IMG/VR virus record: IMGVR_UViG_3300046171_000314
Span: 1 to 64,000 of that record
Direction: 5' to 3' (one strand)
Source of the DNA: a virus
Length of the DNA stretch: 64,000 bases
The notes below the pieces were generated by a model that worked only from the letters and a program-made list of their open reading frames with translations, was not told the origin of the DNA and did no database searches. The first letter of the stretch is position 1; every line of letters begins with the position of its first letter. The position numbers and the translations under genes were made by a program. Below are positions 2,372-31,773 of the stretch, in pieces.

Positions 2372-3646
2372 CTAGAAAGCGACCTTGACACCTCTTTTTG
2401 ATTCAGAGGGATCAAAGATTTTTTCAAGTTTCTCTAAGAGAAGTGGAGAAAGTTCAGACAGTTCCGGAGCGTAAACACTATCGTCATAATTTTGTACGAC
2501 ATCTCTAGTGCCATTACCAAGCCCTACTCCAACGATATGTATCCCTGCCTCACGAGCCATTCGAAGTTGTCTGCGAATGACAGCAGAGTGACCACGATTA
2601 GGACAACCATCTGTAAGGACAAAGATAACCCTGTGAGCCTCTTGTCTTTCAGATATACCTTCGAGAGCATATTGGATAGCATCAGCGGTAGGAGTACCCC
2701 CATCCGCTCTCAAGCGACCAAAGCGGTGCTTCACAGCATTGAATCGCTCACCATAGTTCATAAAGATATCAAGACGAACATTCCAACCACTGCGATGGGT
2801 TTCATCGTTGTACGAGTCCGATGTTCTTTCGCCACCGTTGTCATACCCAATGACCTCAACTTGACCACCAACATCAGAGATAGCATTTGTGAGAGCAAGG
2901 ACACCGATTTGAGTGGCGACAAGTTTATCACCCATTGACCCACTTTGATCAACTACGATACTACAAGCAATACTGACATCCAACTTGTCTGTCTTCTTCT
3001 TATAGGCTCGCTTGACCTTAGTGCCGCTTTTGATAGCACCCCAAGTTTGAGCGTAGCGTCTTTCTGAAAGAGAACGCCCCGTTCTTGTACCGTGTCGCAT
3101 TGAGCAAGTTTCCAATCCTCTCACGATTCGTTGAAGCCCTGTTCTCAAAGGAGCAGAGATACTAGCAGAGGACTCAATAATGTCTGCGTTCATCATCGTG
3201 CCATCCGACAGCAGACCATCAGCAACTTCCTTGATTTTGTCTTTGGAAGAGTCGCCAACATAATAGGCTTGCTCGCCTCTTTGTACATCGTCTTTGAGAG
3301 CCTCAGTGGTTTCTTCAGCAACGACTTCTTCTATAGCGTCATCTTTGTCAAGCAAACCGCCATCGCCACCATTGACGATTTCATCGACGATTTCCCCTGC
3401 GATATCTTTGAAATCTTGCATATCAGATCCACCATCAGCACCACCGCCACCGTACTCAGCGTTGTCGCCTGCGGTTGGGGGTTGATTGCTGTTGCCATCA
3501 GTAGCCTCACCATTGGCATCACCGCCATTTGTAAGGTCGCCCTTTTCAGAGCCATCACCCTTTTCAGAACCATCGCCTTTCTTTGGCGGCTTAGTATTGC
3601 CCTTAGGGATAAGGGAAAGCATTGTATTGAGTGTTTTGAAAGCCAT
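2372..3646 (-). CDS. CobT-like C-terminal vWA domain protein (AAA+ partner)
   Basis: MIDAS DQSGS; GGTPT; VLTDG; G/D-rich N-terminal linker; adjacent to the MoxR-like ATPase. Confidence 0.85.
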   Translation of the reverse strand: MAFKTLNTMLSLIPKGNTKPPKKGDGSEKGDGSEKGDLTNGGDANGEATDGNSNQPPTAGDNAEYGGGGADGGSDMQDFKDIAGEIVDEIVNGGDGGLLDKDDAIEEVVAEETTEALKDDVQRGEQAYYVGDSSKDKIKEVADGLLSDGTMMNADIIESSASISAPLRTGLQRIVRGLETCSMRHGTRTGRSLSERRYAQTWGAIKSGTKVKRAYKKKTDKLDVSIACSIVVDQSGSMGDKLVATQIGVLALTNAISDVGGQVEVIGYDNGGERTSDSYNDETHRSGWNVRLDIFMNYGERFNAVKHRFGRLRADGGTPTADAIQYALEGISERQEAHRVIFVLTDGCPNRGHSAVIRRQLRMAREAGIHIVGVGLGNGTRDVVQNYDDSVYAPELSELSPLLLEKLEKIFDPSESKRGVKVAF

Positions 3647-22186: not shown

Positions 22187-22860
22187 TGAGTAAGGGATAT
22201 AGCACATATTGGTGGGTGAGGAAGCCATTGAGGTCACCACTAAAAATGGTAAAGACATACTTGGTAAAGTGGTAGACCCCTTTGTTTTCAATAGTGAACA
22301 GGGAAATCTCACTTTCAAGAAACTCTACCCTCGTATGTTGGAGTGTCTTAGTGAGATTAGCCCCTAATACTCATAAGTTGAGGTTTGAGTTCCGCAAAGA
22401 CATTATATTCAAAGGAGTGGATGGAGATGGAGATAGCCACAAAGTGTGGTGTGACTATGATCCCTCTAATGGTTACATTGGTGACTTTGAAGGAGACTTG
22501 AAAGAAGTTCTTGGTGACACCATTTTTGAGAAATTTGATCGAAAGCATCCTATCCACAGAGTGCGTGAAGAACTGAATGAGAAACAAATGAGTACTATGA
22601 CCGTTAAAGTTCTTGACCGCTCTACTTGGGGAACTTCTGCTCCCTATCCTTTGGTTCGAACGATCACTATCTCAAAGACCTGCCCCAAATGCGGAGCAAA
22701 GAGAGGCGAGCCAAAGGTCAGAAGTCAGTTCGACAATGGGGTTATGCACTACACACACACGTGGCACAACCCCTGCGGACACATCGATATGTATTCAGAG
22801 GTCTTGAAAGAGGCTTCAAAGAAAAAACAACTTTCTTCCAAACAAACGATCAAAGAATAA
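22187..22860 (+). CDS. one or two hypothetical proteins with apparent indels; the C-terminal part is a CPKCG...WHNPCGH Zn-ribbon protein
   Basis: AGGA RBS and ATG near 22187; frame change at AGCCCCT near 22360; possible second start near 22588-22597. Confidence 0.4.
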
Positions 22861-22883
22861 GTTCTCTTTGGTAATATATTGCA

Positions 22884-22982
22884 AGGGTGATGCACAGCAA
22901 TCTTTACAAACCAAAAAATCAAGAGAAACCGCAGCACTTGACAACGTTGCGTACCTGTATGGTGCTAGTCAAACACCACCCT
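22884..22982 (+). ncRNA. candidate small RNA (closing stem plus CAGCAA motif), copy 1
   Basis: AGGGTGATG/CACCACCCT closing stem; ACAGCAA just inside the 5' arm; TTTGGTA motif upstream; terminator immediately downstream. Confidence 0.55.
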
Positions 22983-22988
22983 GTTTTT

Positions 22989-23015
22989 ATCCCCCTCTAG
23001 TAGGGGGATTTTTTT
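22989..23015 (+). terminator. intrinsic terminator
   Basis: ATCCCCCT-CTAGT-AGGGGGAT followed by a T-run. Confidence 0.75.
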
Positions 23016-23061
23016 GTACCAACAACAAACGAACCGAAGTTCTTTTCGGTATCACTTTTCA

Positions 23062-23121
23062 AGGGTACGAACAGCAAAACAATTTTTACTGATTCCATTA
23101 CATCAATACAAAACGTACCCT
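23062..23121 (+). ncRNA. stem plus CAGCAA RNA element, copy 2 (5' leader of the DUF2828 gene)
   Basis: AGGGTACG/CGTACCCT perfect stem; ACAGCAA at the same position as in copy 1; TTTCGGTA upstream. Confidence 0.55.
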
Positions 23122-23148
23122 GTACTCATTTCTTACTCGGAGGTCATT

Positions 23149-24519
23149 ATGCAAGCAGTACTCACACAAAACGGAGCGGTCACTAATGAAGAGAGTGGCT
23201 CTAGCCTCCTCGATATGTTCTTCTCAATTTCAAGTTATCGCTACAAAGGCTTAGAGGTTGCTGTGGGAGATTTTTGGAAGGCTTGGGAGGAAAACCAAAC
23301 ACTTGCTCTTAGGCTCTTATTCTATCTTCGTGATGTTCGTGGAGGTCAAGGTCAAAGACAAATGTTCCGAGATATTCTAAAAGACCTTGCATCAAAGATT
23401 GACCTTTCAGAAAAGTTTGTTCGTTGGATAGCCGATTATGGTCGATGGGATGACACCTTTGAATTGCTCGACACTATGAATGAGAGCAAACTTAAAACAA
23501 TCTTGGCTATTGAACTGACATTGGGAAACAAACTCCTTGCGAAGTGGATGCCTCGTGAGAAATCAGCGAAGAAGGAACTTGCGAAGAAACTTCGCAAACT
23601 CTTAGGCTTGTCTTCGAAGGACTACCGCAAACTTATTGCAGGAAACACTGAGGTAGTGGAAACACTTATGTGCTCTCAGCAATGGTCGGATATTGTGTAT
23701 TCCCACGTCCCATCGCAGGCAGGACTTCGATATAAAGGGGCATTCGCAAAGAGAGATGGGGAAAGATACCAAGCCTATGTTCAGAGTGTTCTAGATGGCA
23801 ATGCAGCCATCAAAGCAGGAACTTTGTACCCTCACCAATTGGTGGAGAAGTGTTTTGTAGGACAGTATGACAAAACTGTACAGGCAATGTGGGAAAATCT
23901 GCCCGATTACTTAGCAGGCACAGGGGAAAGTATTCTCCCTGTCGTAGATGTTTCAGGATCAATGTCAGGAAATCCTATGATAGTGGCGATTGCTCTTGGG
24001 ATATACCTTGCAGAAAGAAACGAAGGTCGCTTCAAGAATAAGTTCCTTACCTTTTCAGAAAGCCCACAATGGGCAAGTGTGCCCAAAGGGTCTTTGGATT
24101 TGAAGGTGCAGAAAGTTAGGCAAGCCGATTGGGGATATAACACTAACTTGGAGAAGACCTTTCATCTTATAAGAGACCTTGCGATTAAGAATCAAAGTGT
24201 TCCTGATAAGGTCATTATTTTATCCGATATGGAATTTGATGCGGCTTGTGAAGTCAGACAATCTTCAACTCAAACATTCTTTAAATCAATGAAAGCAATG
24301 TTTGCTCAGAAAAATCTCCAAATGCCTTCGATAATATTTTGGAACTTATCATCTAGATCGAACTACCCTGTTCGAGTGAATGAGTGGGGCACAGTTATGG
24401 TCAGTGGGTTTTCGCCAAGCATAATGAAACACATCTTGAAAGGTGGTGGAGAAATCACACCTTTCCAATTGATGTTGCAGGCATTAGGCTCAGATCGATA
24501 TGCTCAAATTTATTTGTAA
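23149..24519 (+). CDS. DUF2828-family TROVE-like/vWA protein
   Basis: LTQNGA; YLRDVRGGQGQR; YGRWDD; AKWMPRE; YSHVPS; GTLYPHQLV; VVDVSGSM MIDAS; LSDMEFD; IIFWNL; VSGFSP. Confidence 0.85.
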   Translation: MQAVLTQNGAVTNEESGSSLLDMFFSISSYRYKGLEVAVGDFWKAWEENQTLALRLLFYLRDVRGGQGQRQMFRDILKDLASKIDLSEKFVRWIADYGRWDDTFELLDTMNESKLKTILAIELTLGNKLLAKWMPREKSAKKELAKKLRKLLGLSSKDYRKLIAGNTEVVETLMCSQQWSDIVYSHVPSQAGLRYKGAFAKRDGERYQAYVQSVLDGNAAIKAGTLYPHQLVEKCFVGQYDKTVQAMWENLPDYLAGTGESILPVVDVSGSMSGNPMIVAIALGIYLAERNEGRFKNKFLTFSESPQWASVPKGSLDLKVQKVRQADWGYNTNLEKTFHLIRDLAIKNQSVPDKVIILSDMEFDAACEVRQSSTQTFFKSMKAMFAQKNLQMPSIIFWNLSSRSNYPVRVNEWGTVMVSGFSPSIMKHILKGGGEITPFQLMLQALGSDRYAQIYL

Positions 24520-24733
24520 TGTGATGTTGGCTCGTGATTTGGTAGCCAATATGACTCAGGGAAGTGTGTATCAGCAGTTGCATTGGCACACATTTCGTCA
24601 GAGGGGGGAGTTCGTTGTTCTTCCCTTATGCCATAGTCTTGGTATATTAACCTCGCAGACCTCCAACCCCCATCCCTCCCTGTATGGGTAGACGTAATGC
24701 AGCAACAGGGTATCTTTTCAGTAAAATAATTAA

Positions 24734-24809
24734 GCACTCGTAGTTCAGTGGATAGAACAACCGCCTTCTAAGCGGTGGGTCGCAGGTTCGAATCCTGCCG
24801 AGTGTGCCA
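24734..24809 (+). tRNA. tRNA-Arg(UCU)
   Basis: GCACTCG/CGAGTGT acceptor stem; anticodon arm ACCGC-CTTCTAA-GCGGT; GGTTCGAATCC T-loop; encoded CCA. Confidence 0.95.
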
Positions 24810-24814
24810 TTTCA

Positions 24815-24848
24815 GGTTGGGATATTACGGTATCCCAACCCTTTTTTT
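24815..24848 (+). terminator. terminator after the tRNA
   Basis: GGTTGGGATA...TATCCCAACC followed by a T-run. Confidence 0.75.
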
Positions 24849-24881
24849 ATATACAGGTGTTCAGTAGTACCAAGAACACCA

Positions 24882-25005
24882 AAAAGTGCAATAATTACAC
24901 TTAAAAGTGCAGTTTCTACACAGAGAAGTGCAATAATTACACGTTAAGGTACAAAATTTACACAAAGAAGTGCAGTTTTTACACCAAAAAGTGCAAAACT
25001 CACAC
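24882..25005. repeat. six 21-bp-period iteron-like repeats
   Basis: GTRCA-N5-YACAC cores start at 24886, 24907, 24928, 24949, 24970 and 24991. Confidence 0.8.
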
Positions 25006-30233: not shown

Positions 30234-31773
30234 ATGTCACGAGATATCTATTTTGGGTCTGACCTTCGAAAGAGAGTATTGAAAGGAGCACTGACTTTCT
30301 CGAAGACCATAACAAAGACTTATGGTCCTCGATCAGGAACTGTGATGATGAACCGAATGGGAGGTCTTCTCTCAACGAAAGATGGTGTAACAGTAGCAAG
30401 GGAACTACACCTGAAAGACCCTGTTGAAAATATGGGTTGTCAGGTATTGAAAGAAGCCTGCATCAATGTCAATGATGAGGTTGGAGATGGAACTACCACA
30501 ACCGCCTGTATTGCCTCTTCTCTGATACAAGAATCTCACAAGTTGATTACCGCAGGGTATGACCCAATGCAAATATCAAGAGAGTTACGAGAAGCAGCCA
30601 AAAAAGTCGTGGACGAGATACGAGCCAATGCTCTTCCTGTCGAAGAAGAAAGAGAACTTCTACACGTTGCTCTCATCTCTTGCAACAACGATAGGGAGGT
30701 AGCGGAGGCATTAACGGAAGCATCTCTTGCAGTTGGGAAAAATGGAACGGTTGCTATTGAGGATGGGAACTCTCTTGGGATAGAACTTGAATTCAAAGAG
30801 GGATTGGACATCAATAAGGGAGCGGTCAGCACTTACTTTATTGATGGTGTGGAAAGAAAGATGGTTAGTCCTCTCGTGGCAGTGATTCCGAAGGACTTGG
30901 TGGCGGCTGATGATGTGACCTCTGTGCTCGAAGAGAGTTCTCAGTGGCCCCAATAACGATTTGCTGTTGATATGTAAGAGTCTATCAGGGCAGGCACTAC
31001 AAACAATGGTGGTTAATCACACAAAGGGCGTAGTTCGCTCTTGTGCAGTTAGTGTGGCAGGCAGTTCTCTCAGACAAACAGATGTCCTTGCTGATATTGC
31101 TGCGGTCTGTGGGTGCGAGGTTTTGTACCAAGATCAAGGATACAACTCAAAGGATTTCAATCCTGAGTGGTTTGGTTCTTGTTCTGAGGTGTTGGTGCAG
31201 GAAAAGAAGACTGTCTTTATGTCATTTGAGGAGGCACAAGAAAGCATACAAAGGAGAATACGAGAGATTCAAAATGATATGCAGAGTTCCAAGAGTGATT
31301 ACGACAGGGATAGGTATCAAGAGCGAATAGCCAAGTTGTCTGATGGGTTTTGTCTTGTAAAAGTTGGGGGGCACACAGAAGCCGCTATGAAAGAGAAGCG
31401 TGCTCGTATTGAAGATGCTCTCGGTGCGGTTCAAAGTGCCCTTCGATCAGGGATTGTATCAGGAGGAGGTTGTGCTTACTTATATGCCTCTTTATGTTTG
31501 GGAGATGAGGGTGCAGAGGGCATTTTGAAAAGAGCCTTACGAGCACCCTTCAGAACGATTGTAAAGAACGCCAAACAAGAAGATGGTTATGTTTACAAGA
31601 ACTTGTTGGAAAAGCACGAGAACGTTTGGGAAGGTTGGGATCTGTACAATGAAGAAATTGTTAATATGTACTCCATAGGCGTGTTTGATCCATTAGAGGT
31701 AGCAGAGCAGGCTGTTCTGAATTCTGTGAGTGTTGCTGCTCTATTAATGACAGCAGAGTGTGCTATCGTTTAG
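30234..31773 (+). CDS. groEL: chaperonin GroEL (one frameshift at ~30947-30951)
   Basis: TYGPR, TKDGVTVA, GDGTTT, YQERIAKL, KEKRARIEDA, GIVSGGG and GVFDP; removing one C in TGGCCCCAA joins the halves (WPNNDLLL). Confidence 0.9.

Follow-up and report, generated by a model that had tools for sequence, protein, structure and literature searches.

A candidate Ro60/Y-RNA-like ribonucleoprotein locus in a viral record: a DUF2828 gene and a family of small RNAs linked to it

The 64,000-nucleotide (nt) stretch of DNA analysed here (the window) is the first 64 kb of IMG/VR virus record IMGVR_UViG_3300046171_000314, a linear record of 147,878 bp estimated to be 56% complete. It contains a gene for a DUF2828 protein and, ahead of that gene, two copies of a small RNA element whose 5′ and 3′ ends pair into a stem beside the motif CAGCAA. 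We consider it probable that this locus specifies a ribonucleoprotein resembling the Ro60/Y RNA particles, of a branch found neither in Rfam nor in the papers searched. The two RNAs are most likely the partners of the DUF2828 protein, because the family to which they belong travels with the DUF2828 gene in very different phages. An earlier note on this DNA, made from its letters alone, had proposed a particle analogous to Ro60/Y RNA; linkage, covariation, protein fold, and the tRNA-like inserts of some relatives now support that proposal well, and from them we infer that the protein binds the RNAs. The three features at the center of the analysis are the following.

22883-22984, + strand: copy 1 of the stem-ACAGCAA RNA, long class, AAG...CUGU, 102 nt, matched by model R2
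23061-23123, + strand: copy 2 of the stem-ACAGCAA RNA, short class, in the 5′ leader of the protein gene, 63 nt, matched by models R1 and R2
23149-24519, + strand: gene for a 456-aa DUF2828 plus DUF7788/vWA protein, with a GGAGG ribosome-binding site at 23139-23143

Two RNAs with a Common Handle

In both copies the 5′ and 3′ ends form a 6–8-bp stem, ACAGCAA comes just behind the 5′ arm, the loop is A-rich, and the RNA closes with CUGU. We call this arrangement the handle. Copy 2 reads AAGGGUACG-AA-CAGCAA, a 36-nt loop, and CGUACCCUGU. Its arms are AGGGUACG (23062-23069) and CGUACCCU (23114-23121), the latter followed by GU, and its CAGCAA (23072-23077) has a spacing of exactly 10 nt. Model R1, built from other phages, detects copy 2 with 45.9 bits (E = 1.3e-9 over 64 kb) as its sole match in the window; model R2 gives it 41.1 bits.

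Copy 1 reads AAGGGUG-AUGCA-CAGCAA, a 76-nt loop, and CACCCUGU, with arms AGGGUG (22884-22889) and CACCCU (22977-22982, then GU) and CAGCAA at 22895-22900. Its stem is extended by UG/CA beyond an A.C mismatch and its CAGCAA spacing is 11 nt (10 nt in the family); the terminal stem is retained in the predicted fold. R1, which represents short members only, does not detect copy 1 as a whole. R2 matches it over its full length (22.3 bits, E = 2e-4); the alignment has one A.C pair, and a single base is inserted ahead of ACAGCAA. The stem-CAGCAA architecture that the earlier note had seen in both elements is thus found where it was described, and both match models derived from other phages.

The RNA Family in Other DUF2828 Loci

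DUF2828 genes are abundant, with 710 records in the phage collection and further ones on hundreds of contigs in IMG/VR, and in most loci other than this one they adjoin tRNA genes or tRNA arrays. The window phage has no close relatives in the phage collection or IMG/VR; its best protein identity is 41–46%, which makes comparison of the locus at the nucleotide level impossible. The comparative sample consisted of 19 and then 80 further IMG/VR loci, with homologs 35–46% identical to the window protein.

A simple descriptor (a 7-bp arm ending 2–4 nt before CAGCAA, its complement 15–130 nt downstream) found 38 elements on the gene strand within 500 nt upstream of these genes and none on the opposite strand. 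Controls gave 0 and 4 (two coding-sequence sets), a mean of 0.7 (shuffles), and 5 (wrong arm register). A further 30 elements lie just behind the genes. With R1, constructed from 33 short members, 79 matches at E ≤ 0.01 were obtained in 336 kb searched on both strands; all 79 are on the gene strand, and R2 was built from them. They fall in 57 of 90 loci (DUF2828 identities 34–44%), so the occurrence of the element near other DUF2828 genes, on which the earlier note had staked its proposal, is confirmed.

The consensus is (A/U)AGGnnnn-YUA-CAGCAA-loop-nnnnCCUG, or AAGGnUnCUUACAGCAA...CCUG in sequence letters, and CAGCAA begins 10 nt from the stem base in nearly all members. Stem sequences differ among loci and the architecture stays the same: one locus (L004) has AGGAAGC/GCUUCCU and AGGGUAG/CUACCCU, and the Campylobacter-phage loci have AUGGUACU/AGUACCAU. 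On stem covariation, which the earlier note had claimed from the window alone, the two copies by themselves give a weak signal; the family gives a strong one. In all seven stem pairs both partners vary, and the share of paired cells is 97.7%, compared with 61% for shuffles and 27–47% for a slid partner. The alignments behind these figures were selected for, or fitted to, the stem, and the independent evidence is the number of elements on each strand and at each position. When 68 members were folded by partition function, the arms were paired and the motif mostly unpaired (P 0.75); the loops are 44% A.

These counts bear on a reading in which the repeats act as DNA, as promoter or operator modules, recombination sites, or replication signals, with the arms serving as protein-binding palindromes. 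The two window copies do share a 30-nt upstream block and small palindromes. However, the arms lie 25–110 nt apart, what is kept between them is complementarity and not sequence, the conserved motif is asymmetric, and strand specificity is strict (79/79). Strand specificity and covariation argue strongly against action at the DNA level, which we regard as extremely improbable.

Most members are 50–65 nt long with an unstructured, A-rich loop. They occur singly or in tandem arrays of up to four, either immediately behind the stop codon or ~100–400 nt ahead of the start codon; elements follow the gene in about half of the loci, and upstream ones are ~30 to 80 nt from the start codon. Many arrays have TTGACA/TATAAT promoters and intrinsic terminators of their own. 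In some long members the stretch between the handle arms has the permuted layout of YrlA, with a T arm first, then a stem-loop, and then a D arm. Such tRNA-like inserts are found in L094 (880-996), L089 (622-745), and Bas63 (82780-82907), and a partial match to the YrlA family, Rfam RF02553, covers model positions 24-84 in L094 (26.7 bits), with similar matches in L089 and L037.

Several cultivated phages carry the elements as well.

Salmonella Felixounavirus BPS17L1: four elements, downstream of the DUF2828 gene
Listeria phage P100: three elements, upstream; 1.3 kb downstream is a gene for RtcB ("tRNA splicing ligase")
Mycobacteriophage LeBron: three elements, downstream
Campylobacter Fletchervirus F365: two elements, upstream
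Bacillus phage FADO: elements present beside the gene
Cronobacter phage S13: elements present, the nearest ~750 nt downstream

In whole-genome scans of P100 (131 kb), BPS17L1 (85 kb), and Bas63 (87 kb), every match lies beside the DUF2828 gene; the scan of S13 gave four matches 8–10 kb upstream of the gene. A quick first-pass genome search overlooked the known elements of LeBron and F365, and little weight attaches to the places where it found nothing. Three E. coli phages that lack DUF2828, from the same collection as Bas63, gave no element match.

Two cultivated phages show variant arrangements. In S13 (L105 3357-3599), an annotated tRNA-Ser (121 nt) and tRNA-OTHER (113 nt) adjoin handle elements, and the tRNA-OTHER overlaps a CAGCAT-variant candidate at 3526-3611; both genes may be handle RNAs with tRNA-like cargo and not tRNAs. 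In Sinorhizobium phage phiN3 (L108 18-159), a perfect arm of 21 bp, with its complement 93 nt downstream, is followed 1 nt later by CAGCAA; this stem, ~1.4 kb upstream of the DUF2828 gene, is far longer than that of the family.

A Protein with a Ro60-Like Predicted Fold

The 456-aa protein matches PF11443 and PF25043 (DUF2828 and DUF7788) and, weakly, VWA_2, with no other Pfam domain, and it matches phrog_850, 'RNA-binding protein' (E = 4e-133). We built an AlphaFold2 model on 42 homologs (pLDDT 86.5, pTM 0.83) and compared it with PDB by Foldseek. The best 12 matches listed are all Ro60, from Thermus phage phiLo (9kop, E = 1.5e-9), Xenopus, human, and Deinococcus (Rsr), and isolated vWA domains come after them. 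These alignments extend over ~500 columns with template modeling (TM) scores of 0.36–0.62, most of them 0.52–0.62. The modeled structure shows a predicted Ro60-like fold over the full length of the protein, the helical-repeat part as well as the vWA domain. The metal ion-dependent adhesion site (DxSxS...T...D) is complete, its residues D267, S269, S271, T332, and D360 being invariant in the 42 homologs.

Unlike Ro60, the protein has no detectable TROVE sequence match: Pfam TROVE is not matched, and a profile search of PDB gives TROVE chains at E = 0.59. This PDB-chain sequence search is non-significant, and the likeness to Ro60 is visible only by fold comparison.

Bas63 gp130 and the Ppl Defence

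The window protein is 34% identical over its full length (E = 2e-87) to gp130 of phage Bas63 (Escherichia phage JohannRWettstein). The PhageMaP preprint (PMC11482910) describes this protein as Ro60-like by structure, encoded directly upstream of tRNA genes, and active in countering the Ppl defence. Its authors noted that some of the annotated tRNA genes might be Y RNAs, and handle RNAs are not described in their paper (PMC11482910). In unannotated gaps of the Bas63 tRNA cluster, 340–1170 nt downstream of the gene, we find four handle RNAs at record positions 82071-82139, 82238-82297, 82693-82762, and 82780-82907, the last of which (128 nt) has T-arm-like and D-arm-like stretches in a long insert. 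What is new here is the homology between this known anti-Ppl factor and the window protein, together with the four predicted, unannotated handle RNAs among the tRNA genes of Bas63. The two loci share the protein family and a tRNA after the gene; the window phage is otherwise unrelated to Bas63 and has a single tRNA gene and two RNAs.

Small opposite-strand "hypothetical protein" calls overlap two of the four Bas63 handle RNAs. In the stretch L113 2894-3108 (Bas63 record 82693-82907), bas63_0137 overlaps handle RNA genes; bas63_0138 occupies the same tRNA-cluster gap, immediately past the last element. A comparable opposite-strand "hypothetical protein" coding sequence, gp107 of BPS17L1 (L101 3134-3349), also overlaps handle RNA genes. 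Both bas63_0137 and gp107 are probably miscalls.

Comparison with Y RNAs and Class I RNAs

Ro60/Y RNA systems, including that of Deinococcus Yrn1, likewise consist of a ring-shaped protein with helical repeats and a vWA domain, encoded beside small RNAs and often co-transcribed with them. Y RNAs resemble the handle RNAs in having a stem made by pairing of their two ends, a conserved motif next to that stem, and a large loop, and some carry a permuted tRNA-like domain. Linkage to tRNA genes is shared too, as is linkage to RtcB in P100; RtcB is absent from the window's record, itself estimated to be 56% complete. The bacterial and phage YrlA/YrlB RNAs make up RF02553 (Chen et al. 2014; PMC4201824), and the Ro60 of Thermus phage phiLo has Yrl1/Yrl2 (PMC12135203). 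Among the handle RNAs, RF02553 (gathering cut-off 69 bits) matches only the tRNA-like inserts of some relatives, with 26.7–30.6 bits. Over 22883-23123 it has no match at E up to 10, and its sole match in the window (18.4 bits) is on the tRNA-Arg gene that follows the DUF2828 gene.

No Rfam family scores above threshold for the two copies. Sub-threshold matches to NsiR1, RyhB, anti-hemB, and Hrs1 were set aside, as they cover only the terminator hairpin behind copy 1, and so were those to YrlA and SpF41, which cover only the tRNA-Arg gene. The nearest family is RF01414, the dictyostelid Class I RNA, with full-length alignments of 14.1 bits for copy 2 and 17.9 bits for a relative in L036 (cut-off 41.5). 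The Rfam match on which the earlier note had made novelty conditional amounts to this sub-threshold likeness only.

The RF01414 consensus in Rfam, GaUcuCCUUACAGCAA...GagAuCUG, shares CUUACAGCAA and the 3′ CUG with the phage consensus. Class I RNAs are ~60 nt long, begin with AAG, finish with CUGU, and have genes that occur in clusters; their terminal stem of 6 bp covaries, and an unpaired 11-nt motif stands beside its 5′ arm (Kjellin et al. 2021; PMC7919456). Copy 2 answers this description with its short covarying stem, motif beside the 5′ arm, AAG/CUGU ends, and length of 63 nt. Both kinds of RNA have the motif CCUUACAGCAA, mostly unpaired, immediately behind the 5′ arm, and both have a variable, A-rich loop. 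Class I RNAs have been reported as unique to Dictyostelia, their known binder being the RNA recognition motif (RRM) protein Rnp1A (PMC7919456). They differ from the phage RNAs in being eukaryotic, in having a Dictyostelium upstream sequence element (DUSE) promoter ~60 nt upstream, and in that binder; the window copies are from a phage record and have a bacterial -10-like upstream block, the DUSE motif itself not having been searched for.

The identical handle raises the question of a common origin or of convergence on one protein-binding solution. That phage handle RNAs and dictyostelid Class I RNAs form one ancient family, with a DUF2828-type Ro60-like ring as its cognate reader, is a tentative idea that we regard as on balance doubtful. 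No description of the phage handle RNAs was found in the papers searched, and none of the five papers found to mention DUF2828 is on phage.

Predicted Transcription Units of the Locus

The signals around the two RNAs and the gene are listed here in order of position.

22851-22870, + strand: 6-bp hairpin CAAAGA/UCUUUG upstream of copy 1, its 3′ arm within the shared block
22859-22888, + strand: shared 30-nt upstream block of copy 1, direct repeat, with extended -10-like TGG-TAATAT at 22869-22877
22989-23016, + strand: intrinsic terminator of copy 1 by terminator scan, 8-bp G+C-rich stem (22989-23009) and seven U
23033-23050, + strand: 6-bp hairpin ACCGAA/UUCGGU upstream of copy 2, within the second block copy
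23037-23066, + strand: shared 30-nt upstream block of copy 2, direct repeat, 77% identical to the copy 1 block
24520-24733, + strand: structured spacer between gene and tRNA, without a terminator, 214 nt, fold z-score -2.4 for 24520-24640
24734-24809, + strand: tRNA-Arg(TCT) (ARAGORN; Rfam 71.2 bits)
24815-24848, + strand: intrinsic terminator closing the copy 2–protein gene–tRNA unit, by terminator scan, 11-bp stem and U run

Three items of the earlier note recur in this list: the TTYGGTA motif ahead of both copies, which belongs to the longer 30-nt block with its 77% identity, the terminator of copy 1 (the stem at 22989-23009 plus the U run), and the tRNA-Arg behind the DUF2828 gene. Block plus handle occurs only twice in the whole 147.9-kb record. 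The predicted start of copy 1 (~22883-22884) is the first base of the handle, and the gap between copy 1 and its terminator is 4 nt. Copy 2 has a weaker version of the -10-like element, CGG-TATCAC. Similar AGAGTTCTTTGA..TAT blocks precede elements in L045, L047, L075, and L076. A sigma-70 scan for two hexamers did not flag the promoter-like block of copy 1, because it has no -35. The two upstream hairpins have different stem sequences and a similar loop (AGTTCT), and their 3′ arms run into the -10-like element.

Because it combines a promoter-like extended -10 with a terminator of its own, copy 1 is a predicted stand-alone small RNA (sRNA) gene, and the earlier note's assignment fits. Copy 2 ends 26 nt before the start codon, no terminator intervenes, and copy 2 and the protein gene probably share a transcript with the tRNA-Arg, the sole tRNA gene found in a search of the whole record.

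The position of copy 2 could suggest that the elements are cis-acting structures of leaders or untranslated regions that control the translation or stability of DUF2828 mRNA, copy 2 mediating autoregulation, and that they are not free partners of the protein. The uninterrupted 26 nt to the start codon would suit this, as would the place of the 3′ arm, inferred to lie at the usual upstream edge of the ribosome footprint (about -35), the element 30–80 nt before the start in at least 10 other lineages, and the confinement of all elements to the gene strand. However, elements stand behind the stop codon in about half of the loci; there are up to three or four tandem copies, some with their own promoters and terminators; those of Bas63 lie among tRNA genes 340–1170 nt downstream and those of S13 8–10 kb away; and in the window a strong terminator separates copy 1 from the gene. 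No pairing of copy 2 with the ribosome-binding site is predicted. Autoregulation through copy 2, which the earlier note had suggested, gains no specific support from a family whose elements vary in distance and side, and we consider cis-acting control quite improbable. An arrangement like that of the Salmonella rsr-yrlBA-rtcBA operon, with RNA and protein on one transcript, explains the position of copy 2 without regulation.

In the spacer (24520-24733), R2 has no match on the gene strand. Two candidate third copies were rejected. The one at 24561-24596, a 9-bp hairpin with CAGCAG at 10-nt spacing and a 10-nt loop, has no R2 score, and the CAGCAG variant lacks strand enrichment in the family (5/64 versus 10/67). 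The other, with CAGCAA at 24700, would depend on weak, interrupted pairing enclosing the tRNA-Arg; this pairing is at chance level, competes with the terminator, and has no model match.

Discussion

In a Ro60-like ribonucleoprotein of this kind, the protein would bind small RNAs through the common handle, that is, through paired ends plus a mostly single-stranded (Y)UACAGCAA beginning 10 nt from the stem base. The variable A-rich loop would be the working or adaptor part, which in some relatives includes a permuted tRNA-like module. Copy 1 would have an extended -10-type promoter and a terminator to itself; copy 2 would be transcribed as an operon leader with the protein gene and the single tRNA, and would probably be cut out of the transcript. 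By analogy with Ro60–Y RNA particles, the RNAs may, during infection, act as a gate to the ring or link it with RNA-processing enzymes of the host. Its likely purpose would be upkeep of tRNA or other RNA, or the countering of host defence.

Several observations weigh against this proposal. About a third of the DUF2828 loci have no element within 1.2–1.5 kb, and the tRNA-like module is absent from both window copies. The Ro60-binding helix of known Y RNAs has a CGAA bulge (PMC12135203), unlike the phage handle with (Y)UACAGCAA on its 5′ side. By analogy with the Class I look-alike, which binds Rnp1A, another kind of protein could read the handle. In the literature searched, we found no binding or expression results for any member of the RNA family. 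Finally, gp130 by itself, whether carried on a plasmid or inserted in T7, is enough to restore plaque formation on a Ppl strain (PMC11482910), and its anti-Ppl activity therefore needs no phage RNAs of its own.

Some of these facts would also suit a reading in which the elements are independent phage sRNAs acting on host factors, as sponges or decoys for an RNA-binding protein, a ribonuclease, or a defence nuclease, without binding DUF2828. The same handle in dictyostelids binds an RRM protein (PMC7919456), gp130 acts against Ppl without phage RNAs, the A-rich and mostly unstructured loops are as expected of a sponge, and DUF2828 genes and elements both adjoin tRNA genes, so that in this reading they would simply share the tRNA/ncRNA region of phage genomes. 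Yet the linkage is kept where there is no tRNA array, as in the window's record with its single tRNA gene. In P100 the three elements abut the gene, and the sole annotated tRNA in the 4.5-kb stretch is on the other strand; in LeBron the three elements directly follow the gene in a stretch without an annotated tRNA gene. The three E. coli phages lacking DUF2828, two of them large (145 and 167 kb), gave no elements, their tRNA genes being unchecked. We judge independent sRNAs to be rather unlikely, and partnership with the DUF2828 protein remains our preferred reading.

The best annotation given to DUF2828 proteins, on the basis of fold, is "RNA-binding protein", and they have no known RNA. A conserved, recognizable handle beside the gene offers a concrete candidate ligand. 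It also implies that annotation overlooks small RNA genes within the tRNA clusters of phages, as with the four in the gaps of Bas63. Since Bas63 is genetically tractable and gp130 has an anti-Ppl phenotype, the role of the RNAs is testable there; the window would seem to be a minimal version of the system, with two RNAs, one protein, and one tRNA gene. Were the phage and dictyostelid RNAs one ancient family read by the DUF2828-type ring, a large DUF family found in viruses, bacteria, and eukaryotes would gain an RNA partner, and the Class I RNAs, without a mechanism since 2004, would be explained. These loci would then also represent a second branch of Ro60/Y-RNA particles, unrelated-looking in sequence and used by phages against host defence (gp130 versus Ppl).

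Other Features of the Window

Almost all neighboring genes of the DUF2828 locus are orphans. The open reading frame (ORF) at 22282-22860 (192 aa; phrog_9089, function unknown) ends within the promoter block of copy 1, and its C-terminus, read by eye from the DNA, seems Cys-rich and zinc-ribbon-like. Between the tRNA-Arg terminator and the next ORF (25076), positions 24876-24998 hold ~5.5 copies of a 21-nt unit with consensus AAAAGTGCAATATTTACACAT, alternatively a 42-nt period, resembling iterons or a row of regulator-binding sites. Farther downstream, a GroEL/Cpn60-like gene is split over two adjacent ORFs in different frames, 30234-30956 (N-terminal, PF00118 positions 2-214) and 30961-31773 (C-terminal, positions 259-484), which may reflect a frameshift, a split gene, or an assembly error.

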